Assembly (NCBI GenBank): GCA_963845755.1
Contig: CAWJTV010000013.1
Coordinates: 224,001-288,000, forward strand
Origin: an uncultured Planctomycetota bacterium
GTDB lineage: Bacteria > Planctomycetota > Planctomycetia > Isosphaerales > Isosphaeraceae
Length of the DNA: 64,000 nucleotides
Reading direction: 5' to 3'
How positions within the stretch are numbered: the stretch's first letter is position 1; the number at the start of each line of letters is the position of its first letter. Below are positions 7,118 through 43,032 of the stretch, in pieces. Both the position numbers and the translations under genes were made by a program. A model generated the notes under the pieces. That model was given only the letters and a program-made list of their open reading frames with translations, searched no databases and was not told the origin of the DNA.

Positions 7118-7328
7118 CCAGAAGTCGAAGGGCATTCCAGATTCCGGATTCGAGATTCCGGATTCTCGGGCCCTGGTGTCGAAGGTATGATTCGAATCCC
7201 ATCGATCGAGGTCCTTGAAACCGGGTTGGCCAGAAGTCGAAGGGCATTCCAGATTCCGGATTCGAGATTCCGGATTCTCGGGCCCTGGTGTCGAAGGTAT
7301 GATTCGAATCCCATCGATCGAGGTCCTT
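7105..7328 (+). repeat. Tandem duplication, 2 x 112 bp, containing GATTCC/GATTCG heptamer runs
   Basis: 7105-7216 and 7217-7328 identical except TTAGCC vs TTGGCC. Confidence 0.9.
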
Positions 7329-7361: not shown

Positions 7362-9047
7362 ATGACCCGGGATACTGCGAAGATGCTCCCCTGGGTGGCC
7401 GGTGAGACAGTCGGGGACGTGCTGGGACGCACGGCTGGGCTGTATCCCGACCGCGATGCCCTGGTCTTCCCGGGCCTGGGACTTCGCTGGTCGTGGCGCG
7501 AGCTGGACGAGCGCGTGGACCGGATCGCCGCGTCCTTGATCGGCCGGGGAGTCGCGCGGCGAGCATGTCGGCATCTGGTCGATGAACGTCCCGGAGTGGG
7601 TGATCACGCAGTTCGCCGCCGGCCGGATCGGCGCGGTGCTCGTGAATGTGAACCCCGCCTATCGACTCCAGGACCTGAAGGACGCCCTGGCGATGGCCGA
7701 CGTGGCGACGCTGATCGTCGGCGCCCGTTCAAGGGGTCGGACTTCGTGGCGATGGTCGAGTCGCTCTGCCCCGAGGTGGCCGCCGCGACGTCGCGCGACT
7801 GGTCGTCCGCGCGGTTCCCCCGGTTGAAGCGGCTGATCGCACTGGGCGACCGGCCCGGTCCGGGCTGGTCGACCTGGTCCGAGCTGGAGGAGGGCGATGA
7901 GGCATCGCGGGCCGAGCTTGCGGATCGTGCCCGGTCCGCCCGCGCGGGCGACATCTACAACATCCAGTTCACCTCGGGCACGACCGGCCTGCCCAAGGGC
8001 GCGATGCTTACACACCGAAATGTGCTCATGAATGCGTTTTACACGGGCGAGCGGCTGCGCTACTCGGCCGACGATCGCGTCTGCGTGCCGGTGCCGTTCT
8101 ACCATTGTTTCGGCTGCGTGCTGGGCACCCTGGTCTGCGCGGTGTATGGGTCGGCGATCGTGGTGCCGGCCCCGTCGTTCGACGCGGGCGCGACCCTCTC
8201 GGCCATCGCCGTCGAGCGCTGCACGTCGGTCTACGGCGTGCCGACGATGTACGTGGCCCAGCTCGAACATCCCGAGTTCAGCCGGTTCGACCTGGCAAGC
8301 CTGCGGACCGGGATCATGTCGGGGGCGCCGTGTCCCTTGCCCCTGATGGAGAAGGTCGTGAGCTCGATGGGGATTCGCGAGATCTGCATCGGTTACGGCC
8401 AGACCGAAGCCTCGCCGATCATCACGTTCACCGACGTGGACGATCCGATCGAGGTCCGGGTCGGGACGGTGGGCCACCCGATCCCGGGGCTGGAGGTCAA
8501 GCTGGTCGACCCCGCGACCGGGCAAGAGCTGGGCATCGATCGGCCGGGCGAGCTCTGCGTGCGCGGACATTGCGTGATGGCCGGCTATTACAACAGCGCC
8601 GAAGCGACGGCGCGCGCCATCGACGGCGACGGCTGGCTCCATACCGGTGACCTGGCTCGCCGCCGCGCGGACGGCAACTACCGGATCGTCGGCCGGAGCA
8701 AGGAGATGATCATCCGGGGCGGCGAGAACATCTATCCCGCCGAAGTCGAGGAGTTCCTGCACCATCATCCGGCGGTGGCCGAGGTCGCCGTGGCCGGGCT
8801 CCCCGACGCCCGGTACGGCGAGGTGGTCGCGGCCTGGGTCGTGACCAGATCCGGCGCCGGCGTCACTCCGGACGACCTGAAATGTTACTGTCACGGCCAG
8901 ATTGCTCACTTCAAGATCCCGAAACACATCATGATCGTCGAGAGCCTTCCGCGGACGGTCACCGGGAAGATCCGCAAACACGTGCTCAGGGAAAACGCGA
9001 TCGGCGCGTTGGAACTCGGGGAAGCTGCGCGGATCGAGACGGCTTAG
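7362..9047 (+). CDS. AMP-dependent acyl-CoA synthetase/ligase; compensating indels near 7560 and 7725
   Basis: FTSGTTGLPKG, YGQTE, GWLHTGD, IVGRSKEMIIRGGENIYP, PRTVTGKIRK. Confidence 0.92.
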   Translation: MTRDTAKMLPWVAGETVGDVLGRTAGLYPDRDALVFPGLGLRWSWRELDERVDRIAASLIGRGVARRACRHLVDERPGVGDHAVRRRPDRRGARECEPRLSTPGPEGRPGDGRRGDADRRRPFKGSDFVAMVESLCPEVAAATSRDWSSARFPRLKRLIALGDRPGPGWSTWSELEEGDEASRAELADRARSARAGDIYNIQFTSGTTGLPKGAMLTHRNVLMNAFYTGERLRYSADDRVCVPVPFYHCFGCVLGTLVCAVYGSAIVVPAPSFDAGATLSAIAVERCTSVYGVPTMYVAQLEHPEFSRFDLASLRTGIMSGAPCPLPLMEKVVSSMGIREICIGYGQTEASPIITFTDVDDPIEVRVGTVGHPIPGLEVKLVDPATGQELGIDRPGELCVRGHCVMAGYYNSAEATARAIDGDGWLHTGDLARRRADGNYRIVGRSKEMIIRGGENIYPAEVEEFLHHHPAVAEVAVAGLPDARYGEVVAAWVVTRSGAGVTPDDLKCYCHGQIAHFKIPKHIMIVESLPRTVTGKIRKHVLRENAIGALELGEAARIETA

Positions 9048-9087
9048 AGTCTACCTTCGTAGGATTCCTGCGCTGTGCGCTTCTGGG

Positions 9088-9173
9088 GAATTCTGGATTC
9101 GAGATTCGAGATTCCCGATGGAACGATTTCGGGATCGGGAATCGGGAATCTCGAATCGGGAATCTCGAATCCC
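9088..9173. repeat. Inverted array of 7-mers (GATTCGA/GATTCCC ... GGGAATC/TCGAATC) between convergent genes; possible terminator
   Basis: Left heptamer run is the reverse complement of the right run. Confidence 0.7.
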
Positions 9174-9277
9174 TCTTGGGTTGCGGCCGAAGGCCGCGTT
9201 AGTCGTCGCGGGCGGGCCGGGCACGATGCGGAAGCACAGTGCCCGCGCCGCCGGGGCTCCACGGGCCGGTCGCAGCA

Positions 9278-10210
9278 TCAGCTCGGGGGAGAGGAGAGCA
9301 TGACGCCGGAAACGGTGTCCTTGTTGAGTTGGTGCGAGCCGTCGGGCCATCTGGTCGTCACGGTCGCGCTCGATTGCCACGCGCCCTGACTGATATCCAC
9401 TTCATGCACTGTATAGGTAATTCCATTCGATTCATAATACGACCTGTTGATGACGGTTCGATTCCCGTGGTTGACGGAATTGACCGTGAACGTAACGGTG
9501 ACGCCATCGGGCCGCTCGAAAGACCCGCTATAAAGGATCTTGTGAGGAGGCACGAACGTGTCCGTACGGGTCTCGGTCTCGATCTGGCCGTTTGGTTCGG
9601 TGACGGTGTTCTGGTAGAAAACGCCGCCCGGGATCGCGGTGTAGTGATCCACCACGGTCTCCGTTCCCTCCGTACCCGGCAGGGTAATCTTCTCAGTAAC
9701 TGTCACGGTCTGGTTGTTGAGTACAAACGTCTCGTCGTCCGTCTGGCTAAGGCCGTCGTAGTAAGTGGTCGTCCACTGCTCGTAAACGGGAAGGCCGGCA
9801 GCGAGGCCCGCCGCCTCCCGCGGAAAAACGTCCAAGATGGGCGGGAGGGGCGCCGCCCGAGCGACGATGGCGTGCTCAGCCTTCATGGCGTGGCCGAAGG
9901 AGCTCAAGGCGATGCGCCCCTCCAACGACAACATCGCGCCAGGGTGGAAGCGTTGAGACGGTCGCACGCCCGAACGCCCCTCAGCCACGAGTACGCCGAA
10001 GGCCCCTCCAATACAGGTCCCGAGGGACATGCTGAACAAAAGGATCGGCACAGCCATACCGGTCTCCGAACTGATCCTTGACCGACCTCCCTGGTCGAGC
10101 CACCAACCGATGGCGACCCCGACGATTCCACCGATCGCCGCACCGATCACGATGCGACGGACAACGGACAACGCGCCGTGGACTTCCTGAGCGGGTTTCA
10201 TGGAAAGCAC
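9278..10210 (-). CDS. Hypothetical membrane-anchored/secreted Thr-rich beta protein with planctomycete LExRxLL-like motif
   Basis: Two N-terminal hydrophobic segments, RFHPGAMLSLEGRIALS, Thr/Val-rich C-terminal half; start uncertain. Confidence 0.55.
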   Translation of the reverse strand: MLSMKPAQEVHGALSVVRRIVIGAAIGGIVGVAIGWWLDQGGRSRISSETGMAVPILLFSMSLGTCIGGAFGVLVAEGRSGVRPSQRFHPGAMLSLEGRIALSSFGHAMKAEHAIVARAAPLPPILDVFPREAAGLAAGLPVYEQWTTTYYDGLSQTDDETFVLNNQTVTVTEKITLPGTEGTETVVDHYTAIPGGVFYQNTVTEPNGQIETETRTDTFVPPHKILYSGSFERPDGVTVTFTVNSVNHGNRTVINRSYYESNGITYTVHEVDISQGAWQSSATVTTRWPDGSHQLNKDTVSGVMLSSPPS

Positions 10211-10326
10211 TCCTCGATGTTGCAGACACGTGCAGGATCGTTGATCTCTAGAAGCAGCATGACGAATTGGGCCGGGTTAGAGCGCCTCGCACTTGGGTTG
10301 CGCACGCGATGACGGTCGATCAGGGG

Positions 10327-10426
10327 CGGCCTGAAAGGCCGCAGGAGCCTCTCCGGCACCCCTACAGGGTGCACGAATAGAGTGCCGGGCCCGAGTCCTG
10401 GGGTTTCACCCCAGGCTATGCTCCTA
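10327..10426. repeat. REP-like palindromic element interrupted by the serine recombinase element (right arm resumes at 12439-12453)
   Basis: CGGCCTGAAAGGCCGCAGGAGC pairs 20/22 with the reconstructed GCTCCTA|CGGCCCTTCAGGCCG; internal hairpin CCTGGGGTTTCACCCCAGG. Confidence 0.75.
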
Positions 10427-12438
10427 TGACCCCAACAGAGTGGCATATAGCCCGTTGATACCTGATACTGTCATCCCTCTGAGCCGCCTCAGAGGGCGTT
10501 GAACCCGACCCTGACGCCGGATTGCTGCTTGCATGGAGGTGATCGTCCTCGCGACGTCCTACCACGGAGAGCGGACATGACACGACGATCGGCCTTGGGA
10601 CGGCACAGCCTCCGCATCCACCGGGAGTTCGTCCCCTCCCGCTGCCAGCTCCGCGCCCTGGCCTTGGCCTTCGAGCAGGCCCTCCCCATCATCCGGAGGC
10701 CGCTGACGACGCCGGCACGACCACAAATGTTCGTTGATTCTGATTTGAATTCGTTCACACAACCAGGCCGTTCGGGGGCCCTCCGATGACCGAACCCATC
10801 GACCGCCGCGCCGCCTTGTACGCCAGGGTCTCCACCGAACAGCAGGCCCAAGAGGACACGATCGCCAGTCAACTCGATCTGTTGCGCCGGCGGATCCAGG
10901 CCGATGGCCTGACCGTCGCCCAGGAACTCCAATTCGCCGACGACGGTTATTCGGGCGAGACCTTCCGGCGCCCCGCCCTGGAACGGTTGCGCGACACGGC
11001 CGCCGCCGGGGCGATCGACCGGATCTACATCGAGTGTCCCGACCGATTGGCACGGGATTACCCGTATCAGATGGTCGTGGTTGACGAGCTGCGCCGCCAG
11101 GGCGTCGAGGTCGTCTTCCTCAATCACGACCTCGATGAGAGCCCCGAGGGTCAACTGCTGTTGCAAGTCCAGGGGATCATCGCCGAATACGAGCGGGTCA
11201 AGGCCCGTGAGAAGTGTCGCCGCGGCCGGCTCTACGCGGCGCGGTCGGGCCAGGTCAGCGTCCTGGGCGGTGCCGCCTTACGGATACCATTACCACACCA
11301 AGCAGGAGGGAGGTGGCGCAGGCCCGGTATGTCGTCCAGTTCGCCGAGGCCCAGGTGGTCCGAGAGATCTTCACCTGGGTGGGGATCGAAGGATGTTCGC
11401 TCAGTCAGGTGTGCCGACGATTGCGAGAACGCGGGCTCCTTACCCGCACGGGCAAGGCGCATTGGGATCGGGCCACGGTCCTGGGCATGCTGCGCAACCC
11501 GGCTTACATGGGGACAGCCCACTTCAACAAGGTCCATTGCGTCCCGGCCCGTCCCCGGTTGCGCCCGCGTCGGGGAGTCCCCGAGTTTCCACGGCGACAC
11601 ACCGCCAAAGCGGCGACGCCCCCCGAGGACCAGATCCCGATCCCGGTGCCGGCGATCGTGGAGCCGGCCCTGTTCGAGGCCGTGCAGGAGCGGCTGGCGG
11701 AGCACCGCCGACATCCCGGCCAGGCGGCCCCCCGGCCGCGCCATCTGCTGGCGGGCTTGGTGGTGTGCCAGCGGTGTGGTTACGCGTATCGCGGTCGGGC
11801 CATGAAGAAGAAGGGAGGGAGTCGCTATGGCTATTACCGCTGTTATGGGGCGGAGGCCGAGTCCTTCGCCGGCCGGGCCCGGATCTGCGACAATCCGGCG
11901 ATCCGGATCGAACGTCTGGACGAGGCGGTGTGGTCCGATGTGCGCGGGTTGTTGCTGGAGCCGGAGCGGTTGGCTGAGGAATTCGAGCGGCGGTTGAGTC
12001 GGGCGAACCGAGGCGAGGGGACGACTCAGTCGAGTCGGAGCCTGGACAAGTTGATCGGTCAGGTCCGCCGCAGGCTGGCGCGGCTGGTGGAGATGTACGC
12101 CGACGGATACATCGAGAAGGAGAAATTCCAGAGAGATATGGATATTTCTCGAACACGAATGTCAGAATTGGAGTTGGAGCGTCGGGCGATGGACCAGGAG
12201 GAACAGCAACGGGAGGAGTTACGGTTGGTGATGGGTCGGATCGAGGAATTCGGGGCGCAGGTACGCGCCGGTTTGGATACCAGCGACGTGGCGACGCGTC
12301 GTCGGATCATTTGTGCACTGGTCAAGAAGGTCGAGATCGATGCGGAGGCGGTTCATATTGTGTATCGTGTGAGCCCTCGCCCTTTTGCCCAAACGGCCCC
12401 GACAGACGGTAACATGCCACACTGTTGGGGCCGTTCTA
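10424..12438 (+). mobile_element. IS-like minimal element encoding a large serine recombinase
   Basis: CTA at both junctions (10424-26, 12436-38); 20-bp imperfect inverted repeats 10427-10446 and 12414-12433 (17/20); excision restores a REP arm. Confidence 0.85.
10577..10789 (+). CDS. Small 70-aa protein translationally coupled to the recombinase
   Basis: ATGA overlap with recombinase start; MTRRS...FVPSRCQLRALALAFEQALP. Confidence 0.55.
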   Translation: MTRRSALGRHSLRIHREFVPSRCQLRALALAFEQALPIIRRPLTTPARPQMFVDSDLNSFTQPGRSGALR

Positions 12439-12503
12439 CGGCCCTTCAGGCCGCCGGAAATCGGCTGTCCTTATGTGCGCAACCCACGCGTAAAGCGCTC
12501 TAG
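10786..12503 (+). CDS. Large serine recombinase (resolvase + recombinase + Zn ribbon + coiled coil); frameshifts near 11273 and 11316
   Basis: YARVST catalytic Ser, DDGYSG, RPALERL, PDRLAR, PYGY, LRNPAYMG, LLAGLVVCQRCG, YYRC. Confidence 0.92.
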
Positions 12504-12699
12504 TGCCAGGTCTCGTTTCAGGCCGGTTCCTCCTCGCTTCGAGGAAAGGATCTCCCGTCCAGTCTCGCGACCGGGCGGGAGCAACCGCCTCCTTCACTTT
12601 CAATCGCGACCGGGCCACCCTCCAGACCAAGGATGACTTCCGAGAGCGGGTCTCCCCAGCGTACCTCGGGGGATCGGACGCTGGTCCGACCGGCGAAGA

Positions 12700-13320
12700 T
12701 CACGGCATCCGACCCGCGAGGGTCCCCCGGGAATGACCCGAGGCATCGGACGGAAGTCGGCGCGGAGCATCGCCTAGCCGAATCGGGGACGAATCAACCG
12801 GAGTCTGGTTCGGGGACCGGCTCGACTGTTCGCCGGGCGTTTCCGACGAGGATGGGGCCGGTGCGGTCTCCGGGACATCGCCCCGATAGAACTGACCGGC
12901 CGGCAAGACGGAGGATCGATCCCCGGACGGCCGGCCGATGCGGGGAGCTGAATTCAGGGCGTCGTTGGCAACTGTGTTGTGAGTGACGAGAGGGATGCTC
13001 GCGGCGTTGGGATCATTGGCTCCCGAGCCGACGGTGATCGTCGCGCCGGCACTCCCGCTCGATCCGGCCGTCCCCGTCGCGGCGAGGCTGGGGATGCCGG
13101 TGATGTTACCCGGCTGGATACTGGAGATCCCGCCGGAGCCCGTCATCGTGAACGACGTGGGGACGGGGGTCCCGCCCAGCGAGGCGCCGGGGAAGGGAAT
13201 GATCAGGACGTAACCACCGGTCGTCAGCACAATCACACCCAGGTCGGCTATGACCGGCAGGAGACGATCCTCCAGTTCGCAGGCTTGCAAATCGGGATGG
13301 AACTTTCGAAGCAGATTCAT
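12700..13320 (-). CDS. Hypothetical exported protein with planctomycete LExRxLL motif
   Basis: MNLLRKFHPDLQACELEDRLLP followed by low-complexity G/S/T/P region. Confidence 0.6.
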   Translation of the reverse strand: MNLLRKFHPDLQACELEDRLLPVIADLGVIVLTTGGYVLIIPFPGASLGGTPVPTSFTMTGSGGISSIQPGNITGIPSLAATGTAGSSGSAGATITVGSGANDPNAASIPLVTHNTVANDALNSAPRIGRPSGDRSSVLPAGQFYRGDVPETAPAPSSSETPGEQSSRSPNQTPVDSSPIRLGDAPRRLPSDASGHSRGTLAGRMP

Positions 13321-13751
13321 TGAAGTATCTCCTCGTGACGGACTCCCCGGTGCGGTCACCGGCGAGACCGAACTGAGGTCCTCGGCGGAGACTCACCTGG
13401 AGGGAGATGTCCGTTTCGCGTGCGATTGTGCCATCGCATTCGCGACTCGAGAGTTCGGGGGTCCTCAGCAGTTCGTCGCTTTCCCGTAGGACTTCGAACC
13501 TTGAATTGATCGGACCATTGCACTTCGCCGGCCAGGCCCATCATCCGGTCATCTGCCGAAGCGAAGATGACATCGGAGCTGGCCGAACCCAACCTCGGCC
13601 TCGCCGACCCCGGAGGCAGCACGCCGGCCGTTGACGAGGATGACGTTGTGATCGGCTGAACCCTGGGTCGAATGCGAGTCCCCTCTTTAACATCATCCGT
13701 ACGCGGCTGTCCGACGCGCAACCGCCCGCGCATTTTCCCCCTCTCGCCGTG

Positions 13752-16700
13752 TCATGGATACAATCCGACAGGCGCGAAGACGTCGTCAGGTAGCTCACCC
13801 TCGTGTCCGGCCAGGACGCTCTCAGCCTCGGCGCGGAAGCCGGCCAGGTCCTGGGCGCTCCGGGCATCGAGGTTGTGCGGCTGCTGCATCCAGCGCACGG
13901 CCCGGTTGTAGCAATCGCGCGCCTGGTCCTGGTGTCCCAGCCGATGGTGCGCCTTGGCCAGGAAGAAGAGGTCGAAGGCGTCAGACTGGCCACGGCCGGC
14001 GACCAGGCTGCGCTCGAGGGTGGCGATGGCTTCGGCGTACCGGCCTGTTCGGTACAGGACGACGCCCATGGTGTTGAGGGAGGTGTCTTCGCCGGGAACC
14101 AATTCCACGGCCCGCTGGGCGAGCGTCAGCGCGCAGTTCGAGGTCGTGCCGGGGCCCGGGACCGCGGGCCAGCTCCCAGGCGCGGTTGTTGCAGCACGAG
14201 GCCAGCTTTTGCTGGAGCTGGGGTTCGTCTGATTTCATGGCCAGCGCGGCCTCCAGGTCGGCGATCGCGGGCTCGTACTGGTTCAGGATCTGATGAATCC
14301 GTCCCCGGAAATCTCGAAGGTGGGCATCGTCGGGACGCAGGCGGATGGCCTGATCGAGGTCGGCGATTGCCTCCGGAAAGCGCCTCAGGCTGGCCCGGGC
14401 ATGAGCGCGATGGTGGTAGGCGTCGGCATCGTTGGCATCGTTCTTGAGTCGGGCGGTGTAGAGCTGGACCAGCGATTCGGCGTTCTCGCTGTAGTGCTGG
14501 AGGTGCTCAGTCAGCGGGCCGTAGTTGACCTGGAGCGGAGGCAGGGGCGGCGCCGCGGGATCGGCCGGGTCGTCTTCGGAATAGGCGGGTGCGTCCCAGT
14601 CGAGGTCCATGCCGGCCAGGTGCTTGCGGATGGCGCGCAGGTCCCAGACGTGCGTAGCCGGGCTATCATTGGTGGTCACCACGAGCCGCGACCCGTCGGG
14701 GCTGAAGGTCGGCCAAACGCTGCACATGTCGGGGCTTTCGAGCCGCACCAGCGTGCGGTTGGTCTCTGTCTCCACCAGGCGGATCACCTTGCTCGCATCC
14801 TGGACCACCACCAGCCGGCCGTCCGGGGAGAAGCAGCCAGCCCTGTCGCGGATCTGCCTCACCTCGCGCCAGGTGCCGACCTCCCAGATCCGGCAGGGAG
14901 GCTCCGCTGTCATCAGCCATTTTCCATCGGGGCTGAAGACAACCTCGGTTCCCCCATCGTTGGGCAGCTCGGCGACTTTCGTGACATCACTGATGCGCCA
15001 GACCTGGGAACCGCGAACATGGCTGCCGGTCGCCAGCCATTGGCCGTCCGGGCTGATAGCGACGCCCCGGCAATCGTCCAGGGGGCCCACGCGGATCGTC
15101 CGCTCTGGAGTCGAAACATAAACATATGTAGACGCTTCACCGGCCACGATCCGGCCCGATCGATCCTCGGCGATCGCGCCATGAGACGCCGGCAAGGGGA
15201 GGCGATGCGGCGGGCCGATGCGGAATTCGCCGCGGGCGGCGTCGAGCTGGATCGGCCATCGCTGTACGCCGATGTCCCCGCTGGTGATCAGGTCGCCCGA
15301 TGGTTCGAACATCAGGTTCCAGGCGTTGCCGATCGGCAGGAAGGCGAGCTCGGTGCCGTGGGCCAGGTCCCACAGCGCCGTGCCCCGGCTCGTGCCCACG
15401 ACCAGCATCCGGCCGTCATGCCGGACCGATGGACGTCCATAACTGATCGGCTCGCGGGAAACATGGGCAAGAGACCGGTATTCCAGGGCCGGATAGACCT
15501 GGTAGGTTGTCAGTTTGTCCTCGAGCGAAACGACGATTCGTCCGTCTTGGCTGAATTCCGGGTATGAGCCGTCGGCCAAGCTCAGCACGGGCCGGCCCAA
15601 GACTGGGTCCCAGAGCCGTAGCTGCCCTTCCCAGCCGTTGCTGGCCAGCAACGTGCCCTCGGGATGAAAGGCCGTAGCGATGCCGCCATTGATATGGCCT
15701 TCGAGTGTCGCCCGCCGGATGCCGGTAATGGCGTCCCAGAGGTCGATCTTCCGATCGTTTCCCAGTATGGCCAGAGTGGCACCATCGGGGCCCCAAGCGA
15801 CGCTTCCTTCAAGAGCAACGGGGCTCGACTCGAGCTTGGTGCCGTCAGGGCCTAAGGTGACCTTTGTGCTGATGGCGAGTGGAAACGACCGAACAAGCCG
15901 GCCTGAATCTGTGTCGAGAAGCCGACATGTGGGGAGTTGCTCTTCGCGAGAGATCACGGCGATCTGAGCCCCGTCCCGACGGAATGCCAGATCGAGCGCC
16001 GGTGCTTGTCCGCCCGAGCGCCAACTGGGCTGACCAGTCGCAAGGTCGTATACCAGTAGCTCCCCATCCTCATGGACAAAGGCGATCCGCCGGCTGTCCG
16101 GGCTGAATTTGGCCGCCCTCCCCGATACGGGGCCCGGGTGGTTCAGGGAGACCGAGCGCTGGTCGATGTCCCAGACCGTCAGGGCACCGTCGGGATGATG
16201 TCGGGTCGCCAAGTAGCGGCCGTCGGGGCTGAAGCCGAAGACGGCGACGCTGCGATCACCGCGGGCTGAGAAACGGGCAACCTCCTGGTCATCGGCGACG
16301 CGGCGGACTGAGATCTTCCCATCGCGGAACCGCAGCGCGTAGCGGGTCATAGTGGAGTCGAAGGCGGCCAGGATCACATTCGGGGGCCGGTGGATGACGC
16401 GGCCAGTGGGCTTGAGGTCGGGGAGGGCCAGGGCGGCGATCGCTTCATCGCGGAGCCGGTCGAGCTGCGCGGGAGGCAATTCTAGGTCGCGGCCGATTCG
16501 CGAGGCGCGTTCCAGGGAGTCGAGGCTGTTGAACCGCTGACCGGCGCGGTGGCTGAGCCGAACGGCGCGGGCCTGGGCTGTCAACGAGTTGAAGAGGTTT
16601 TCGCGCGTCTCAGACTCGGCGCGCCGGACCCGGTCCCGCTGGTCACGGTAGGTCAAAGCCGCCACCGACGATACGACGGCCAGAGTCACCACGACGGCCA

Positions 16701-31915: not shown

Positions 31916-32082
31916 TACCGTCATGACAGGCCAGGATCATGAGTATCGTGATCCTCCCTTGTATCCGTGGAGAGGCACCGTCGAGAAGAGTAACTTGGCT
32001 ACTCGGTGCAAGGTGGGACAGGAGCCGACTGAGGTCAGCGAGTTACAGAGCTGGGACGACCTCCTCCATTCGAGTTGATGTG

Positions 32083-34097
32083 ATGGGTACGCTCGACGCG
32101 ATTCAGGGGCTATCGGATGGGGAGTTCCACAGGCTTGGAGACGACCTTCTACGGAAGCTCGACGCCCGATACCGGCGGCTCCGCACACACGGCCTCAATG
32201 ACCGTGGAGAGAGCATCAAGGGGCAGCCGGATTCCTATGTCGGTGACACGGCTACGACGTGTAGTGTGGCGGTCTGCTATACCGTAGAAAAAAAGGGGTG
32301 GTGGACCAAGGTCGTAGACGACGTTCGTGAAGCCGTCGCTGTTTCGCCGATGGTCAAAGAGATCGTTGTGGTCATCCCGCACAACGCCGACCGGGACGGA
32401 CCGAAGGTTAAGAGCATCGACTGGCTCTCAAACGCACGTACGGCGGCCGGGACGGCGAGTCTCCGTGTGATCGACGGGCGGGAGATCAGCCGAGAACTGG
32501 ACACAGACCACCAGGACCTTCGTTACATACATCTCGGGATTCCCTATTCTCGTCTCTCCGGCCAGAGCATCCTCGCCGGTTGCCAGGCCGCATCCCTGAA
32601 GGTCATCGATTCGATCAAGGCGAGTGGTCGATACGACCCCGGTCGTTATGTCCCGAGGTCCGCCGACGGGGAATTGTACAGGCTCTGGCAGGCGGCCGCC
32701 CGACACGGTTTCGACAACGAGCGACGAGTCGGCCCCGTCCGGTTGATTGCTCTGGTAAGTGATTCCGGCCTCGGGAAGACTAGCCTCATGTGCGAGTTTA
32801 CCCTCAAGCTCGGGCGGGTGCTCCCGGTGTTGCTCGTCCAGGCTCGGGATCTGCTGCTCGGGACCGAGAACAGCCTGGTCGCCCACGCGGTCCATGACAT
32901 CCAGGGCTTTCTCGACCCGGCCGCACGAGTAAACGAGGAAGCCGCCCTGTGCAAACACCTGTCTGGCTCCGTGTCGCTTACCGTCGTCCTGGATGGGCTG
33001 GATGAGGCGCACCACCCGGATGCCATCAGAAGAATGATCTCGAACTGGTTGGGGTCCAGGCTGGGTCAATCCAGCATCTTGATAGTCACTTCACGGCGGG
33101 AGTTCTGGAGGACATGTGTAGACCGCTCCTGGGAGCGATGGATGCCGTCCACGACCCATGAAGACCGCTTATCCATCAAGATTGCCGAACCTATGCAGTC
33201 CGAGCGGAGCGATCCAGTCGCCGGCATCCGGCTACCGGACCGATTCACTGATGACGAACTCGATGCAGCCTGGTTACGGGCGGCCCAGCCTCGGCAGGAA
33301 TTGTTCGCATTTTCAGACGAAGTCAGGGCGGAACTTCGCCACCCGTTCACGCTCCGGGTGTTCCTCGACCTCCGCAGCAAAGGCGACCCTCTGCCCGGAC
33401 CCTGACGAGGGCGGCTCTCCTCGAGTGCTGGTTGGACCGCCGGCTCGCCGCCGAGGCAGAGGCGATGCCGAGGGAGCGGATCACCCGCAGCCACTTCCAG
33501 CAAGCGCTCCGTGTCGTGGCGCGTCGCCTCGCCGATGCGAACTCGGGCTCCGTGTCCGTTGACGAGTTGACGGGAGTTCCTTACTTCAATCCAGCCAAGC
33601 CGCCTGGGCTGGTTGTTCAACGCCTAATCGAGGCCAGCATCCTGGAAAGTCTACCAGGCCGACCGGATCGGGTCCGTTTCTCCGTCGAGGCGGTCCAGGA
33701 TTACTACCAGGCGGAGGTGGACATCGAGGAGATCAAGGCTGATCCCAGTCGGATGGCGGAGGTCTATTCACGCCTCCAGTTCACAACGGCCTATCTCAGG
33801 CTGCTGCGGATCGGGCACAGCCAGGTCGGCGGGGGGGACCTGGACGAGTTTGCCCGTCGCCTGGCGGAGTTGAATGCCTGGATGGCAGCCGTCGTATTGC
33901 GGCCGGCCCCCCACCGATTCTCCCCGGACATCAGGGCGAGGATCGCCGACGAACTCGGTCAGCAGATATCGTCGCGTCACCGTGCCCGGGCAGCGATGGC
34001 GATAACTATGCTCGGAGAGGTTGATTGTCAGGAATCCGCCGAGACTTTGGCGGCTCACCTTCTCCCGCCGTCCGACGCTCATCCCGATTTTAAACGC
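32083..34097 (+). pseudogene. 5' part of Avs-like STAND/NACHT ATPase with N-terminal restriction-endonuclease-like domain; frameshift near 33403; interrupted by RIT element
   Basis: EFHRLGDDLL..KGQPDSY..YT..KVVDD; Walker A SDSGLGKTS, Walker B VVLDGLDE, IVTSR, LRHPF.L. Confidence 0.75.
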
Positions 34098-34314
34098 TTA
34101 TGTTGTCGCTCTCGTTATGTGGCAGCTACCCGCTTTTTCCGAGGACCTCAGGCCGTGGCCAGCGCAGACACCACATAAGTTCGCATGCTGTCACGCCAAC
34201 TCATGCAAGGACTCGCGATCGCGGTTTTACCGGAAACCCTGGCCCCTCCTTGGTTCGTTATTGGCCCTTCGCTGCACTGGCTTGGGCGGGGCGGGCCGGC
34301 TTCGCCGGACCTGC

Positions 34315-34566
34315 TGCCGATGGCAGTTGGTATTTGAGCAGTTGGAGCCGCTCGTCGATGGACCGTGCCAGGCCGAGCTAGCGGTCAAGCATCTGGATGG
34401 CGCCGATGCCACCGCAGGCGATGCCCCGAGTCTTCGCGGCGCCCTCGTAATGAATGTTGGAGGCGGTGAAGACTAGCTCGGGCGAACGGGCGGTGACCAG
34501 CCTGTCGAGCCGCAGGCAGATTTTCCGCTTGCCGACGGCGTGGTGGCGGTGTGGAATCGTATTCAC
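34315..34566 (-). pseudogene. IS1380-family transposase N-terminal remnant
   Basis: FTASNIHYE..RGIACGGIGAI...LGLARSIDERLQLLK with internal stop; AGGAGG RBS. Confidence 0.6.
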
Positions 34567-34740
34567 TCGAAGCCTCCTTGTAGGTTCGGCTGTGGGATCG
34601 GTGTAGGTCGGTCTAATGTGCTGGAAACGCCGGGAGATCACGAGTTTTTCACTGGTTGCCCGGACGCGACCGGCCACCCCAATCTCGCGAATGGCGCATG
34701 GAGGCGAAACCCCGTGGAGCAGGCCGAAGGTGCACCGGCC

Positions 34741-37541
34741 ATGAGCATCACATCCGACCTTGTCGAAGCGTACTCCCTCTGTCCAAGGAAAGCATTCCTG
34801 CTGATGACGGGGGCGACAACAGACCCCGGTCCGCACGCCTATGAACTGCTCATCCGAGAGCAGGCGGAGGCCAACCGCCAAGCCCACCACGTCCGCCTGG
34901 CGAATACCAATGAGGTCGTCATCGCCAGCGGCCCGGCCGACCTGACGGCGGGCCGGGATGTACTCGCGGACGCGGAACTGGCGATCAGCGGCCTCCAAGC
35001 CCACTTCGACTTTCTCGCGAAAGTGCACGAGCCCTTGCGGCGGGGACGGAGCTTCTACGAGCCGATGAGGGTCATCGGCACTTACAAAGCGTCAAGGACG
35101 GACGCCCTCGGCTTTGCCTACGAGGCTCTTGTCCTTGGCGAAGTGCAGGGGCGGAAGCCGGCCTCGGGCGCGCTGGCTCGGCTGGGCGGCCGCCTCTGCG
35201 AGGTGCAGTTCGCCAGCAGGTATAAAGAGGTGCGGCGGATCGTCGAGACGCTGCGGGCATGGGCAGCGCAACCCGCTGGTGAACACCCCGCCAGTGGTCG
35301 CTGAACAAGCACTGCCCGAGCTGCCCCTTCCGGGCCGCCTGCCTGAGCAGGCGGAGAAGGAAGACAATCTGAGCCTGCTGGACCGGATGACGCCGAAGTT
35401 GATGCGGAAGTATCACGACAAGGGCATCTTCACGGTCCGGCAACTGTCCCACATCTACAAGCCGAGGAGGAGCAGAAAGAAGGCCAGACGGCAGGCGCGG
35501 CACAACTTGGAGTTACAAGCTCTGGCAATCAGGACGGGGAAGGTCCATGTCGAGCACCTGCCCGACCTGCCACGCGGGTCCGTCGAGTTGTTCTTGGATC
35601 TCGAGGGTCTCCCGGACCGCGACTCGTACTATTTGGCCGGACTTCTCGTGTGCAGGGAGATGGCGAGGCCGAGTACGAGCCCTTCTGGGCCGATGACGAG
35701 AACAGACGAGGCCGCGATGTGGTCAGCCCTGGTCAATCGGTTGGAGACGTTCCCCGACGCCCCGATCTACCACTACGGCAACTACGAGAAGAAGGCGTTC
35801 GCCACGCTGACGAAGCGGCACGGCAAAGGCGGCGGGCTTGCTGAGCGCTTGGTCAACGTGGCATCGTCCGTGTACGGCAAAGTCTACTTCCCGGTGCGGT
35901 CGAACGGGCTGAAGCAACTGGGCAGGTTCCTGGGGGCCGTTTGGGCCGACCCGCAGGCATCGGGCTTGCAAAGCCTGGTCTGGCGGCACCGCTGGGAGAT
36001 CGACGCGGGACGAGGCGTTTAAGCGGTTCCTGCTCCAGTACAACTACGAGGATTGCGAGGCCGCTCGTCTGCTGGTCGAACGCTTGGACCAGATCAAGCG
36101 GGAGGCCGCGTCGGATCCGGTGATCGAATTCGCCAGCCGGCCGAAGCGACACGCGACCGAAACCGGAAAGGCACTCCACAGCCAGTTCGAGCAGATCTTG
36201 AAGTCCGCACAGATTGAATTCGCCGGTCAGGGAATCCGTATCGCGAGAGACAAGAGATATGGGGGAGCGAATGCCTGCGGAAGAAACGGAGCGCGCGAAA
36301 CGGACACCAGACTTACCGCCGGATCATGTCTAAAGGCCAGCCGGACTGTCTCCGTGGAACCGCGGCAGCAGATGCCCAAAGCACAATGTGGTGATCTCGT
36401 GCCGAAACCGAACAAGCTCGGCCGAGAGAACCGTCATCGACCTCGTGTTTTCCAAGAACGGTTGCCGGAAGACAATCACGCGGTACGTCGGGTCAATAGA
36501 GGTTACTGCCGATGTGATGCGGAGCCCTACAGACCAGAAGGATTTCGCGGCTGGCAACAAGGCCTTCGGGCACGGGTTCCAGGTCTGGGCCGTTTACCAA
36601 CGGATCGTGCTTCGGCTGCCCTACGCGATCATTGCTCAGGTCATGGAGCACTTCTTCGGCGTCGGCGCTCGGCATCATCCAGCATCATCGACTTCCTCGG
36701 GAACCTTGCCGGTTTCTACTCGGAAACCGAGGCCGCCCTTCTCCGGGCGATCCGGAAGAGCGACTTCGTCCACGTCGATGAAACCAAAATCAACATCGAG
36801 GGTGTGGCCCACTACGTTTGGGTGTTCACCGACGGGCAACACGTCGTGTTCCGTATGACGGAGACACGAGAGGCCGATATCGTTCGCGAGGTGCTGGCCG
36901 ACTACAAGGGCGTATTGGTCAGCGATTTTTACTCCGGCTACGACGGAATTCCGTGCCGTCAACAGAAGTGCCTCGTTCACCTCATCCGCGACATCAACGA
37001 CGACCTCTGGAAGGCTCCCTTCGAGAAGGAACTGGAGGCGTTCGTCCGTGGAGGTCCAGACCCTTCTCGTGCCGATCCTAGGAAGCAGTGGATCGCTTCG
37101 GATTGAAAACCCGGCACCTTCGGAAGTTCAACAAGGAAGTAGAACGATTCTACGAGAAGAACATTTCTGGAAGGGAGTACGCGTCGGAGTCAGTGCGAGA
37201 CATACCGAGAAGCGGTTCGACCGCTACCGGAACAACCTGTTCACCTTTCTAAACGAGGACGGAATCCCCTGGGAGAACAACATGGCGGAGAGGGCGATTC
37301 GGCAACTGGCCGTGCAGCGGAAGATCTCGGGATCGTTCTTCAAGCGGGTCGGTCCCGCACTACTTGCTGCTGCTGGCCATCTCGCAGACGTGCCGCTTCC
37401 AGGAGCAAGTCGTTCCTGAAGTTCCTGTTGTCGAAGGAGACCGACATGGATTCGTTTCGGCAGAGAAGGCTAGTCCGTTATTCCTACGCCGCCGGCAGCC
37501 AGAGGGTCATGCCGGAACCGCCACCAGGTCAGACAGTTTAA
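34741..37541 (+). CDS. TM0106/Cas4-like nuclease + RNase H-like exonuclease + IS66 DDE transposase fusion (many frameshifts)
   Basis: AYSLCPRKAFL; LNKHCPSCPFRAAC (35301-35342); FLDLEG, YHYGNYE, SNGLK, YNYEDC; VHVDET, VSDFY, QKCLVHLIRD, NNMAERAIR. Confidence 0.75.
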
Positions 37542-37840
37542 ACGAGCGAGGTCTGGGCATTGACAGCACCATGCATCGAGAAAACTACAGGGCATCCCGA
37601 GACGATGGTTTTCGGCGAGGCAGCTCACTCGAAACTACCCCTTTAACCTCAGAAGTGATTCGGAGTCCATTCCCCTGGTTTTCTGGACCAGAAGTGGCAG
37701 TCAACCATGTATCACAGCGAGCATCTCGCTTGTTTCAGGTCTAACTTGAAGGGAGTCCAATGGTGGCTCATGCCCCAGAAAAAGCTCGGAGAGCATGCAC
37801 AAAGATCTTCTCGGTCGCCATCAAGACGCGAACGAGACGC

Positions 37841-38856
37841 TTACAACGTCCGCAGGAATGCCATGACATCCTTCTGTTCACGCCAAGGTTTCCGATGCTC
37901 CTCGCCACCAACTTCGCAGTTCGCCAGGGCCTTGGCCTTCATTTCCAGATCTACTTCCGCATAGACGTTCGTCGTCTTTAGCGAGACGTGGCCGAGCCAG
38001 GCACGGATCGTGTTGATGTCCACCCCGGCACGCAGCAGGTGCATCGCCGTCGTGTGCCGGATCGTGTGCGGGCTGACGCGTTTGTTTGCCACCGACGGCA
38101 TCGTCGCTGCGACCACTTGCCGCGTATCGCTCCACCAGCGCATGAATTCCAAACCGCGTCAGCGGTTGGCCTCGACGGTTGAGGAAGACGGGTTCCTGAA
38201 GGGGCACGACCGCTCACCAAGGGAATCAACTCGTTGACTGTCCTGGCCCACAGCGGGCAGCGGCGTTGCTTGTTCCCCTTGCCGTGGATCAGGACCGATG
38301 AGGGATCTCGCTCCGGTGTCTGACCCAGGTCGAGGTCAGCGACCCGGACCTGGGCCGCCTCGTCCGCGCGAGCACCCGGTGTTGTAAAGGAACAGCAGCA
38401 GGGCGTGATCCCGCCGACTCTGGGCCTTGCTCGTATCCGGTGCCGCCAGCAGGGCGTCCATCTCCGCCTTCTCCAGGTAGCTCACCAACGGCCGGGGCGC
38501 TTTCTTGAACGGGATGGAACGGATTTCCCCGCACCACTGGACGTGTTCCGGGCTGCGCTGCACCGACGAAGTGCGCCAGGGAGCGGATCGCCGCCAGACG
38601 CTGATTGCGCGTCGCCGCGCCACAGCCCCGCTTCTCGCCCAGTTCGCCCAGGAAGGCCCGAACCCGGACGGCCGAGAGGTCCTCGACCTGGAGCCGGTCA
38701 ATCCCCTTGCGGACTCGCTGTGCGGCAAAGGGCAGGAGCAGCCGCAAGGTGTCGCGGTAGCTCCGCTGGGTGTTGCGCGCGAGGTTCCGCTCGGCGACGA
38801 GGTGCTCGAGCAGGAAAACGCCGCACCCACGGCCCGAGCAAGGCGGCGTCAGTCAT
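37841..38856 (-). CDS. ritC: RIT tyrosine recombinase C (frameshifted)
   Basis: ATRNQRLAAIRS, RDHALLLFLYNTG, SPHTIRHTTAMHLL, IRAWLGHVSLKTTNVYA. Confidence 0.85.
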
Positions 38857-39802
38857 GGCTACCCTCCTTTCCCGCGTAGCACTCGAAGCGTCCATTGGCT
38901 TCCGCCAGCAACTCCGGCGTCATGCTCAGATAGACCTGCGTGGCGGCGAAGTAGACATGCCCCAGGTAGACCGACAGCTGGGGCAGCAACTTCTGCACAT
39001 CAACCCCCTGCCGATACCAGGACGTCAACCGGTGGACCGCGAAGGTGTGACGCAGGTCGTGCAGCCGCGGCTGGTAGCGCGCGCCGGCCTGCGCCGGACG
39101 CCGGAGTCCTCACAGACGCGACGGAAGCTATTCATCCATGGTGTCCTTGGCTCACTCGGATGCCATCGCGCATGGTGAAGAACGGAGCCTCTGCTGCGGG
39201 ACTCGGGATGGTGCCGCGCGGCGGCCGAGGTGTACTCGGCCAGGACGCCACCCAATTGCGGGCTGAAGGGGACCAGCCGGGTCTTGAAGAACTTCGTCGT
39301 GGCGGACCGTGAGCAGGGAATCTTCGCCAGATCGACGTCGTCGCGATTCAGGGCAAGCGCCTCGTGGAGACGCAGACCGGCCCCGTAGAACAGCAGGACG
39401 ACAGTGCGAATCGTGATCGGCTCCAGGCGGCTGCGTCGTCGCCGGTAGCAGTCCGTCGCTCGCACGAGGCGACGGATCTCGTCGTGCGTGTAGATGTACG
39501 GGACAAAAGGCGGGGGCCGTTGCGGCAGCACTACGGGCAGGGGCGACGCGGCAACGTAACCACGGGTGATGGCGTAGCGATAGAACCCGAGCAAGGCGGT
39601 GTACCTGATGTACCAGGCGCTGGTGATCGGCCCCTTCCCGTCCAGGAAGGCTTCGACTTGCTCCTGGCCCGGACGTCAGTGACAGTGGCAGACGCACCGA
39701 CGGCACGCCCGAAGGCCCGCAGGAACTGGCGTTGGTCTTGAACCGTTCCCCCAACATCTGGCGATAGGCAATGTAGCGTTCGATCAGTTCTTGCAGGTTC
39801 AT
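38849..39802 (-). CDS. ritB: RIT tyrosine recombinase B (frameshifted)
   Basis: PYIYTHDEI, LFYGAGLR..EAL, TKFFKTRLVP, PRLHDLRHTFAV, LSVYLGH in shifted frames. Confidence 0.85.
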
Positions 39803-41055
39803 AGCAACCCTCCGAGATCGAAGTCGGCAACCTGGCGGAGCCCGCGAGGTCCACCTTGGCGTAGACGCGCGTCGGTCTCCGGGTGGCGGTGGCCGAGGTG
39901 GTCGCCGATCTCCTTGAGTGATAGACCCTGTTTCAGGAGGTGAGTCGCGCAGGCATGGCGAAGGGCATGGGGGCCAAACCGAGCCAGGGAAGGACTCACA
40001 ACGCGCAGGCGTCGCGAGACGATCAGGTAGAGCGTACTTCGGTGCAGTGGGCGGAGTGGGGCATGACAACGTGCGAGGAAGACTTCGCGTAAGGCCGCGC
40101 GTGGCCGCACCTCCTTGAGGTAGCGGAGGATTGCCGCAGCCACGGATCGGGCCAGCGGATAGATCCGAGGCCGACCCGACTTAGAGAGCCGCACGGTAAA
40201 CACCTCCCCGCTCCCAGTCGAAGTCATCCAGCCGGAGTTGGACGACTTCGCTGGCGCGGAGGCCGTAGACGGACAGCAACAGGAGCAGGGCATGATCCCG
40301 GATGTCAACCGGCCGATCTCCCTGGGTCATCGCCAGTGCCCGCCGGACCTCGTCCCAGGTCGGACCGGTGGGAATGGTTTCCTGTCCGAAGACACGGGGG
40401 CCTTTGATGGCGGCTGCCAGTCCGGTGCGACACCAGCCGCGCCTTTCCGCATAGCGGAAAAAGGAGCGTAAGAAACCGGCACAGTCACGCACCGTGGAGC
40501 GGCAGTAGCGACCAGAAGCGACCTGCGCGGCAAGGGCATTGTCGATATGATCGACCGTAATTCCTTGGAGTGAGCCGTTGGTCGGGTTGAGACGGATGAG
40601 TATTATACCGAGGGCCAAGCAACGGCACTCAATGGTGGTGGGCGACAACCCCCTCTCGTTGCGGAGGTACTCGGCAAATGCCGCAATCTCTCCAGCGAAA
40701 GGAACAGGTGTGACAGGTACTGGCTTGAGTCGTCCCAGGAACCGAAGCCAGGCGATGGCGAAGGCGAGAATAAGGTGCGGGCGGTCCGGGCCCCGGCGAT
40801 CCTGCGCGGTCCGGGTTGCTGAGCCCAGAGGATTGCCGTCTGGCCAATCTCGTCGCGCGAGATGAGTTCATCTGTACGATCCGCCAAACGCAAGAGTCGA
40901 GCAATCACGAGCAGATAGTGGGCTCTGCACCGTAAGTCGGTGCGACGCATCCCGAGCTCGGCCAGATGAGCAAGGTAGCGGAGCCGCTCCTCGAGCAAGG
41001 GACCAGCGCGATGGAGTGCTACATAGCGGGGACGCTCGAATAGTTGGTCGAACAA
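39799..41055 (-). CDS. ritA: RIT tyrosine recombinase A (frameshifted)
   Basis: LRSFFRY, RDHALLLLLSVYGLRASEV, GPHALRHACATHLL, KEIGDHLGH; ATGA overlap with ritB. Confidence 0.85.
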
Positions 41056-41197
41056 AGTCGAAACTCCACGGGGGTAGTGAGAAAGGAATCACTTCGACTA
41101 TGGTAATGACGGAATTTATGTGGTCTTCTTGCAAAGGCAAACCTGAGATTGGCCGAGAGTAGTGGCTGGCCGCCACATAATCAGGCACGTCACACAA

Positions 41198-41229: not shown

Positions 41230-43032
41230 CTCGGAGCAGTGGCGTTTTCCAAACTCGGCTATGTGCCCGCAGCCGAATTCGTGTACCGATGGGAGATGTT
41301 CGGACTCTCAGGCCATGACATCTACATCTTCAAGAAACTCCTGGGAACCATCCGAGGGGCAAACCCAGACTTCCGCAAGACTCTTGCGGAGGTGGCACTC
41401 CAGAAGATCTCAAATCCCAGCGGCGCAGCCGAGCACCTAAAGGCCGTGGCCGTGCTTTCTTCTCTCGGCGATGACCGCCTCGTGGCACACCTGGAGGGCC
41501 GCCTCGCCGAGAACGGCCTGCTCGGTAGGTATGAAAACCATGCCCTGATCGCCCTGGGAACAGATGCAGCGGGGGCCTTGTTCGCCCGCTCCGTGATGGC
41601 GGTCGGGGCAAGGCTCGCCGGACTTCCTAACGACCATGCCAACCACGATGCCCGCAACAGGCTCATCTCCCTCGTCCGTTCTAATACATATGATACGCGT
41701 TACTTGCTAACTCCGGCTTTCGAACCGCATCTCAAAGCACTCATCAAGGCCGACAATCCAGATGTTTCGTGGCTTGCCAGTGCTCTGGCAAAGCGTGGCC
41801 TCATGGCATCGCTACTCTACTCGGCCGTCGTAGTAGGCGATCCGCCAGGCGAGTTGGATTTGCATCGCAACCAACAACGAGCCTGCGTCACCACTGACGT
41901 TTGGCTGGGATGGTGGCGGCAATCCACCGACTCCGGCTTGAGACGAAGACTGCTGGGCCTTCTCCCGCTTTGCCCGAGTGCCGAGGTTGAAAAGATCCTT
42001 ATCGAATGTCTCGATTCGGCCGAACTTCGTGGATCAGCCGCCCGAGAACTCGGAGACTACGGTGTTGTCCGTTCGGCGGCTGATCTGCGGGGAATACTGG
42101 CGGAAGAGATTACTGCGGGCGACCATTGGGGCAGGTACGGAGCGGTCCGTGCTTTGGGTGCCTTGCGAGACGAGGCCGCAGTGCCCCTCTTGGAGAAGAC
42201 CGCGGCAGAGTATCCACTCGACTGGATTGTAGGAGAAGCGGTGTCGAGCCTTGGCCTTATCGGCACTCCGGCGGCGGAATGTGCTTTGGACCGACTCCTT
42301 CAGTGTGGAAAGGCGGGAGAGTTTGAGGAGATGGTCCTCGAAGCCCTGTTATACTGCGGTTCCGCGCCAGCAGTTTCAATCGTTGTGAATCGCGCAAGAT
42401 CGAGAATGGATGGTCCCCGTTGGCTCTGCGATCGCCTCGTCGGGCTTAGCGACTTCCGTGGGTGGAGCCAAGGTGAATACTACACCGACATTTACACCGA
42501 CGAGTTGGTGGACTATCTGACGTCACATTACCAGACGGGCTCGCCAGGACAGGATTGGAAGTTGGGAGAAGCCTTTCGCCAGATCGACAGTCCGGCCGTC
42601 CGGACCTTGCTGCGGAAGTGGGCGGACCGACGAGGATCACCCCAAGATTCGTTGATGCGAGAGAACGGACGCCGACGAATATCCGATGTTTGCCTCGAGG
42701 AATTGAGGGACCGAGGCGATGAATCGGCTATCGATTTTACCCTTGATGGGCGAGCAGAGGATAAGGACAACATTTACGTCCTGGCGACAGCCGACCTCCT
42801 CCGCACATTCCCGGCTACGGCTGTCGCCGAGCGTTTACGCCTGCGGCTGGCCGCAGCGACGACTACATCGCAGGTTGTGCGAATGCTCTGTCTTCTCGGG
42901 AGATTTGGTGAAGCGGCCGATGTAGACCGGGCCAACCGTTTCCTGGACCATCCTGACGACCTGGTGGCGAGCGTTGCCTGTACGACTGTGCTCAGGCTGA
43001 GTGACCCGATGCTCCTACCGGACCGCTGGTGA
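41224..43032 (+). pseudogene. 3' part (HEAT-repeat region) of the interrupted STAND gene
   Basis: Frame opens right at the element end (ELLGAVAFSKLG); HEAT repeats AARELGD, AVRALGALRDEAAVPLL, AVSSLGLIG. Confidence 0.72.

Follow-up and report, generated by a model that had tools for sequence, protein, structure and literature searches.

The classical IS66 transposase, TnpC, exhibits an N-terminal leucine-zipper region and is accompanied by separate TnpA and TnpB partners, while ISBst12-type IS66 elements have no tnpA or tnpB. The terminal repeats of IS66 elements start with a GTAAGCG-type consensus. With regard to the TM0106/COG2251 family (TIGR03491), we know of no function that has been shown. 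In a stretch of 64,000 nucleotides from an uncultured Planctomycetota bacterium (hereafter the window), we analysed a gene located at 34741..37541 on the forward strand, which joins these two families. Its product of about 930 residues comprises a TM0106-type module (a Cas4-like domain with four cysteines and a DEDDy exonuclease), a linker, a Zn ribbon and an IS66-type DDE core. We estimate at roughly 0.6 the probability that this fused protein is the single-gene transposase of a mobile element, with a built-in end-processing capacity predicted from its domains.

The C-terminal half resembles IS66 transposases, especially those of single-ORF (open reading frame) ISBst12-type elements: the curated IS66 cut-off is reached, the D-D-E triad is invariant, a Cys-rich ribbon precedes the core and the C-terminal tail is IS66-like. 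As in ISBst12-type elements, tnpA and tnpB are missing; no match to either was found among the ORFs scanned around the window gene, in agreement with the preliminary description of this DNA. In contrast to IS66, the fused protein exhibits a TM0106 module of about 450 residues instead of the leucine-zipper region. The domains LZ_Tnp_IS66 and zf-IS66 are absent from the eight fused homologues scanned with Pfam, whereas both are present in the canonical IS66 neighbours of some of these genes, and neither matched ends of the GTAAGCG type nor 8-bp duplications were found at the fused-gene loci.

The N-terminal half has the layout reported in the part of Majorek 2014 (PMC3985635) that deals with this family, where PF13482/COG2251 proteins are predicted 3'-5' exonucleases co-occurring with a DUF83 PD-(D/E)XK domain. 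Stand-alone TM0106/COG2251 members, for instance on alphaproteobacterial plasmids (27-29% identity to the N-terminal half), differ in having no transposase. The section of Steczkiewicz 2012 (PMC3424549) on COG2251 groups it with Cas4. The fused protein shares with Cas4 the fold and a 1+3 cysteine pattern, and the concept of an end-processing module riding on an integrating enzyme recalls Cas4-Cas1 fusions and prespacer trimming. However, an intact homologue of 922 residues, P0073, reaches only 24.3 bits against the cas4 model TIGR00372 (cut-off 65), the candidate D/E/K positions appear not to be conserved in the fused family, the integrase is a DDE enzyme rather than Cas1, and the CRISPR context is missing. 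In Tn7, a restriction-enzyme-fold domain is likewise paired with a DDE transposase (TnsA with TnsB), and TnsA appears as a PD-(D/E)XK transposase protein in the relevant entry of Steczkiewicz 2012 (PMC3424549). In comparison, the fused protein differs in that its PD-(D/E)xK site looks degenerate and that the conserved extra activity is a predicted 3'-5' exonuclease.

The fused gene of the window

The window gene was read by a frameshift-aware alignment of the window DNA to P0073, which spans 34735-37523, with 674 of 922 residues identical. This alignment contains 19 frameshifts (12 extra bases and 7 missing bases) and no in-frame stop. In the translation of 34500-37800, the coding path hops among the three forward frames, and the listed ORF pieces do not exceed 340 residues. 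The junction between exonuclease and linker is nevertheless uninterrupted in the window itself (frame 0 from 36003). The ATG at 34741 and the stop codon at 37539-37541 agree with the limits proposed earlier for this gene. Its features are the following:

34741..37541, forward strand: fused TM0106-module/IS66-transposase gene, read through 19 single-base frameshifts with the help of family matches and intact homologues of 920-985 residues
34741..35350, forward strand: Cas4-like PD-(D/E)xK-fold domain, with Fe-S Cys codons at 34780, 35313, 35322 and 35340
35351..35575, forward strand: helical bridge of the TM0106 module, inside the TIGR03491 match, corresponding to the putative HhH-like segment of the preliminary description
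35576..36089, forward strand: DEDDy 3'-5' exonuclease (RNase_H_2, PolB-exo-like; PF13482), with codons D 35597, E 35603, E 35786, Y 36039 and D 36051
36090..36365, forward strand: variable linker, disordered in the structural model (pLDDT below 50 at residues 496-526), with 0 columns at 95% conservation
36366..36551, forward strand: Cys-rich beta-ribbon (Zn-finger-like) before the DDE core, with C543, C586 and C589 in 84/84 homologues and a long beta-hairpin at residues 551-585 in the model
36552..37541, forward strand: IS66-type DDE core and C-terminal tail (PF03050, NF033517), with codons D 36777, D 36924 and E 37288

The motifs on which the preliminary description was built were all located, namely CPRK (34780), CPSCPFRAAC (35313-35342), DLE (35597-35605) and YNYED (36039-36053), as were those of the IS66 core, HVDET (36777), SDF (36924) and NNMAER (37288). 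That the three modules form one polypeptide is shown by the intact homologues of about 930 residues. The window's own piece of 302 residues scores 120.9 bits against TIGR03491 (cut-off 97.45), and other window pieces match PF13482 at 1e-11 and PF03050 at 3.6e-18 and 1.8e-8. Against NF033517, window pieces score 89.3 and 42.9 bits (cut-off 180), which is low because the gene is split.

Single-base frameshifts are dense throughout 34700-41100 (19 in 2.8 kb in the fused gene, and 3 + 12 in a neighbouring trio of recombinase genes), and the flanking genes of 467-730 residues are open. It is quite likely that the 19 frameshifts are consensus errors of the assembly and that the window copy is intact in the organism, because the frame-corrected copy shows very few deviations, all its indels are of one base and it has no nonsense codon. 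Among 91 full-length homologues, 232 positions are invariant or have a single exception, and the window copy deviates at three of these (L635F, D758E, A765S). In intact homologues, the corresponding leave-one-out count is 2 at the median and at most 11, so that the three conservative changes are inside their range.

The alternative is that the local copy is a truly dead pseudogene and that the frameshifts are real mutations. The contrast between intact flanking genes and a block broken throughout from 34.7 to 41.1 kb could be read in this way, as could the intact state of some other IS (insertion sequence) copies in the genome and the replacement of the candidate Lys112 by Arg. Nevertheless, neutral decay that yields 19 indels, here all of +1 or -1 base, should also leave stops and damaging substitutions, and none of the 922 codons is a nonsense codon; this points to an indel-prone consensus. 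The recombinase trio is frameshifted in the same manner (3 and 12 frameshifts and 0 stops, relative to two ORFs of its paralogue on contig C6 of the same genome), and those other IS copies that are not intact carry 1-3 frameshifts, as expected of an indel-prone assembly. A dead local copy is thus unlikely.

Homologues and conserved sites

A homologue search limited to longer proteins returned 1693 proteins at E<=0.001 among 5279 candidates. The best 120 of these, which are 73-84% identical to the query piece, were examined: 101 contain both PF13482 and PF03050, 19 contain PF13482 alone (543-735 residues), and 91 have a length of 900-990 residues. Their sources name them 'IS66 family transposase' (NCBI) or 'predicted RecB family nuclease' (JGI). 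One-ORF fusions are thus abundant, and they pass both curated cut-offs. P0073 scores 248.6 bits against TIGR03491, residues 5-445 covering model positions 1-458 of 462, and 182.8 bits against NF033517 (residues 520-891), for which P0011 reaches 197.7 bits. PF13482 is matched in intact homologues at 1e-21 to 3e-30. At greater distance, 966 representatives of 50%-identity clusters match at E<=1e-30, and the best 150 of these include more than 80 full-length proteins (about 900-950 residues) at 30-48% identity. As so many full-length members are so distant, the fusion appears to be old.

The AlphaFold model, based on 72 sequences, has a mean pLDDT of 89.4, with disorder only in the linker and in the last 14 residues. 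The best Foldseek match in the PDB is the ISCth4 (IS256-family) transposase (6xgx, E 2.5e-7). The Cas4 chains of Cas4-Cas1-Cas2 complexes (TM 0.63-0.69 by target length) and the Cas4 protein Pcal_0546 are also matched, as are the Dna2 nuclease domain and family-B and T7 DNA polymerases. A sequence search of the PDB gave no match at E<=1. With PADLOC, P0073 matches Cas4 models only (residues 8-204, 6.7e-9).

The conservation of the active sites, which the preliminary description had proposed to check, was assessed in a close set of 91 full-length homologues and in a deep set of 84 proteins (83 representatives of 870-1000 residues and P0073). The exonuclease residues D288, E290, E/D350 and D438 are invariant in both sets (91/91 and 84/84), and Y434 is present in 91/91 and 82/84. 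The transposase residues D676, D725 and E845 are likewise found in all proteins of both sets. With regard to the Fe-S cysteines, all four are invariant in the close set; in the deep set, C193 and C196 are present in 84/84, C202 in 83/84 and C16 in 79/84, the other five having gaps at this position.

The candidate nuclease residues of the Cas4-like domain, in contrast, appear not to be kept family-wide. D92 is found in 85/91 proteins of the close set and 52/84 of the deep set, E109 in 84/91 and 11/84, and K112 in 71/91, Lys being outside the six commonest residues at this position in the deep set. These positions were assigned by motif pattern and not by residue-level superposition, in the part of the alignment that is least reliable, and the candidate PD-(D/E)xK motif reads E-P-V-K instead of E-x-K. 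The window copy has all the catalytic and cysteine codons, save the candidate Lys112, which is Arg (codon 35068).

Purifying selection acts on every domain. The ratio of nonsynonymous to synonymous substitution rates (dN/dS) was computed from 9 intact genes (36 pairs), after 3 of the 12 loci tried (L038, L049 and L051) had been dropped because their genes broke early. The Cas4-like domain gives 0.27, the bridge 0.09, the exonuclease 0.15, the linker 0.25 and the Zn ribbon with the DDE core 0.14.

Full-text searches, whose coverage ends at subscription journals, found no study of the fusion. Table 1 of Challacombe & Kuske 2012 (PMC3469429) lists, with no comment there, a S. usitatus 'transposase IS66' with pfam03050 and COG2251 in 4 copies. 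Judging from the homologues, the window gene belongs to a large, old, widespread and unstudied IS66-type subfamily with a built-in exonuclease and Fe-S module.

Distribution and neighbouring elements

Both halves of the protein are found in 4 of the 401 sampled genomes of the window's phylum (G000, which contains the window; G326; G032, in which the gene is broken; and G393), and one half only, at 25-29% identity, in 11 further ones. In a sample of Acidobacteriota, the phylum of locus L012, 4/401 genomes match at E<=1e-40, a tally that rests partly on the unpublished genome G454, and 5/76 match in another sample; none is multi-copy. Matches of 63-86% identity come from metagenome-assembled genomes labelled Gemmatales, Pirellulaceae, Planctomycetaceae, Deltaproteobacteria, Acidimicrobiaceae, Aminicenantales and Polyangiaceae. 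Labels on contigs of 1.5-1.7 kb may be binning errors; the Deltaproteobacteria match (70% identity) is on a contig of 62.7 kb. The fused gene is also carried by Calothrix and Acaryochloris plasmids, and on the former the two hypothetical genes that flank it are unrelated to each other.

The neighbours of the gene are varied and include SecA/LpxC, ParAB and toxin-antitoxin genes, IS21, IS3, ISAZ013, DDE_5 and DUF4277 transposases, and serine recombinases (L042, L058 and L069). The window's own genome contains one close copy, one diverged and interrupted copy and one match to the N-terminal module only. The latter (G000:C19:4425-5690, reverse strand) is 39% identical over 427 residues, with no IS66 part behind it at E<=1e-6. 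The patchy spread over several phyla, the mobile neighbours and the frequent breakage (the same 3 of 12 tested copies) fit a mobile element better than a domesticated gene, and on these grounds the gene appears to behave like a mobile element.

Other features of the window and of its genome are the following:

37841..41078, reverse strand: three consecutive tyrosine-recombinase genes (RIT-type trio), with PF00589 on pieces, frameshifted but with no stops
34321..34533, reverse strand: remnant of an IS1380-family transposase gene (N-terminal 71 residues or so), 208-420 bp upstream of the fused gene
L104 (G000:C40:64001-80000), about 8193-14069, reverse strand: second, diverged fused gene of the same genome (33-40% identity), split by an IS3-family insertion (rve/HTH_21, 11815-12670)
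L104, 6606-8063, forward strand: convergent single RitC-like recombinase gene after the second fused gene, 70% identical in DNA

The trio is convergent with the fused gene and starts 299 bp past its stop. A second trio, 68% identical, is present in the same genome (C6:123931-126545), and the 12 kb examined around it contain no fused gene. RIT elements, as characterised in Van Houdt 2012, are of about 3.5 kb and composed of ritABC only. We regard the trio as an element of its own, independent of the fused gene, that came to lie next to it by insertion. The proposal that the fused gene is carried by a RIT is not borne out, because such an element is the trio only, with the fused gene outside this unit, and because the C6 trio has no fused gene nearby. 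Moreover, Pfam detects no tyrosine recombinase among 44 ORFs of 7 genome loci and only one among 125 ORFs of 37 further loci (L019, unrelated to the RitC-like proteins). A trio was found at none of these 44 homologous loci, many of which are on contigs with short flanks, where absence is weak evidence.

Of the linkage postulated in the preliminary description, what persists is a weaker, recurrent adjacency to RitC-like genes. In L007 and L037, the fused gene is preceded, about 180-200 bp upstream and on the same strand, by DNA that is 70-84% identical to the last recombinase gene of the window. In all four RitC-like cases (the window, C40, L007 and L037), it is the 3' end of the recombinase gene that faces the fused gene. 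We infer repeated insertion of one element beside the other and not co-inheritance, given that the recombinases resemble each other much more closely than the fused genes do. The Acaryochloris plasmid copy has an unrelated tyrosine recombinase of 200 residues, convergent and 598 bp away; that of G393 is also unrelated to the RitC-like ones.

The IS1380 remnant is real: by tblastx it is 50% identical over 71 residues to ORFs of the own-genome contigs C6 (47138-47350) and C30, and the C6 ORF matches PF13701 (DDE_Tnp_1_4) at 2.5e-13. The suggestion that it might be captured DNA found no support. Window positions 34430-34721, from part of the remnant through to near the ATG, are 81% identical over 292 nt to the metagenome contig L050. 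It reads as the stump of an IS inserted upstream, so that the window's left flank would not be the native end of the element.

Outside this mobile block lie two bracketing genes, at 31939-34178 (which matches NACHT, PF05729, weakly, at E 2e-4 and short of the Pfam cut-off) and at 41239-43032 (a HEAT-repeat protein). No PADLOC model matches either, and they were ruled out as halves of one interrupted gene, as they show no mutual similarity. Elsewhere in the window, a 112-bp unit occurs twice at 7101-7328, with 98% identity.

Element ends and mode of action

According to the explanation that we favour, the fused protein would be the transposase of a small single-gene mobile element of about 3 kb. 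The TM0106-type module would replace the leucine-zipper region of the classical TnpC and its separate TnpA/TnpB partners. The DDE core would carry out cleavage and strand transfer, the exonuclease would trim or resect DNA ends, and the Cas4-like Fe-S domain, catalytically degenerate in most lineages, would hold them. Together, the two N-terminal domains may supply the end-processing that other transposons obtain from a second protein.

Several observations weigh against this explanation. The roles of the exonuclease and of the Fe-S domain are ones that we infer. No genome with several near-identical copies was seen. Inverted repeats and 8-bp duplications were looked for by repeat searches in the window, by aligning 600-nt flanks locally and by scanning 19 loci for ungapped 24-mers with a test for duplication; neither in the window nor in the 18 other loci with both flanks did any pair rise above background. 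Autonomous transposition is consequently putative. The absence of recognisable IS66-type terminal repeats, already remarked in the preliminary description, thus extends to all these loci; as to the combination of standard IS66 ends and target-site duplications with no RIT association, the ends and duplications were not found in these loci, and no trio was found in the 44 homologous loci. DNA similarity between subgroups ends within a few dozen bases of the ORF, and the non-coding flanks differ between subgroups despite ORFs that are 75-80% identical. The gene may be mobilised in trans, given the five loci with a canonical IS66 right behind it. Finally, the repeats at the limits of conservation in two subgroups are direct and not inverted, which is not obviously explained by a DDE enzyme.

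The best-sampled of these subgroups, group A (L005, L006, L008, L034/L035, L044, L046 and L057), is conserved from about -305 to about +195 around the gene. Both limits of this unit of about 3.3 kb bear the same 33-nt direct repeat, AAAAAGTTCAA...CCCCGACT (L008, 5692-5725 and 8912-8945; also L044, L046 and L057), with a terminator-like hairpin after the left copy. Two contexts, L006 (5649-5723) and L034/L035 (L034, 3984-4058), have the 3' end of a genuine tRNA-Pro(TGG) gene in place of the left repeat. L057 has about 90 nt of right-end sequence ahead of its left end. In the second subgroup (L009/L010), a 235-nt direct repeat brackets the fused gene. Its copies in L010 (859-1091 and 4000-4235) are 68% identical; the first reaches as far as the start codon of the fused gene, the second as far as the start of the neighbouring DUF4277 transposase gene, so that two different transposase genes share one 5' region.

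The motif GTAA[AG]CG is properly oriented in 7 independent places and improperly in 1, never as a matched pair with duplicated flanks. Three candidate sites were set aside. The only GTAAGCG match of the window, with its end at 37844, partly coincides with the stop codon of the trio's last gene, and since L037 has TAAAAC there it was read as a coincidence. The GTAAGCG pair of L049 is 420 and 575 nt from the ORF in G-rich sequence, with no duplication. The pair of L017 (17/22) is not common to the G032 copy. Neither a comparison of G326 with G032 nor the use of a neighbouring 575-bp repeat revealed a clean empty site.

The fused gene could instead be a cargo or helper that depends for its movement on other elements (canonical IS66, RIT-type or serine recombinases, islands at tRNA genes), and act as an end-processing or strand-transfer factor in their service or in competition with them. 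Candidates for such partners include the canonical IS66 TnpC genes that are convergent with the fused gene and start 80-240 bp behind it, with at least two spacings, in L040 (8978-11727), L053, L054, L056 and L070; the only TnpB_IS66 matches were in L040 and L056, within these separate IS66 elements. In L040, GTAAGCGTTCGGCT at -327 matches, inverted (20/25), the outer end of the neighbouring IS66, and it agrees at 14/14 bases with a site that L017 (49% identical) has 87 nt ahead of its fused gene. This pair, however, has no matching 8-bp flanks. The four RitC-like genes that abut the fused gene, the serine recombinases directly upstream of it in L042 and L058, the att-like direct repeats of group A with their position at a tRNA-Pro 3' end, and the failure to find inverted repeats of its own are also consistent with cargo. 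On the other hand, most loci have no such partner within the available flank, the partners vary between loci, and those tyrosine recombinases that accompany the gene in Acaryochloris and G393 have no relation to the RitC type. An invariant DDE triad under purifying selection is what is expected of an active transposase. We consider a cargo or helper role improbable.

The direct repeats allow a further, bolder reading, which we regard as doubtful. The subfamily would have given up inverted repeats and helpers; the exonuclease and the Fe-S domain would process the element's own ends, and insertion, by an unusual route, would favour tRNA-like 3' ends or hairpins and leave direct repeats of variable length (33 to about 235 nt) derived from the right end of the element. 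If true, this would be a new integration mode for a DDE enzyme.

The domesticated DNA-processing or capture enzyme of the preliminary description, a host protein working with tyrosine recombinases as Cas4 or DnaQ trimming does with an integrase, is very unlikely: an integrase-type enzyme that bears a Cas4-like fold and an exonuclease, purifying selection on all domains, a single copy per genome, tyrosine recombinases at a minority of loci and, in L039 (3230-3504, 3527-4758), a copy that stops about 35 nt short of the trailer end of a short CRISPR array (type I-E-like, 61-nt period), itself directly after cas6e and cas5 with no cas1/cas2 between, are points in its favour, but the gene is missing from nearly all related genomes sampled, has no conserved neighbourhood, is commonly broken and has an identity across phyla that points to transfer, the candidate Cas4-type D/E/K residues appear not to be kept, neither a CRISPR array nor a cas gene is present in the window, and the L039 adjacency looks like an insertion accident because a near-identical sister copy, L038, sits in another context.

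The single-gene transposase remains the explanation that we favour, and the fusion gives a handle on two families, since the movement of IS66 elements is poorly understood and TM0106/COG2251 has no known function. A conserved natural fusion implies that both halves act on the same DNA substrate, so that strand transfer, exonuclease trimming and Fe-S-dependent DNA binding may be united in one protein. A parallel would be the way in which CRISPR spacers are trimmed by Cas4 or an exonuclease when they are integrated. Annotation as either 'IS66 family transposase' or 'RecB-like nuclease' hides the fusion.

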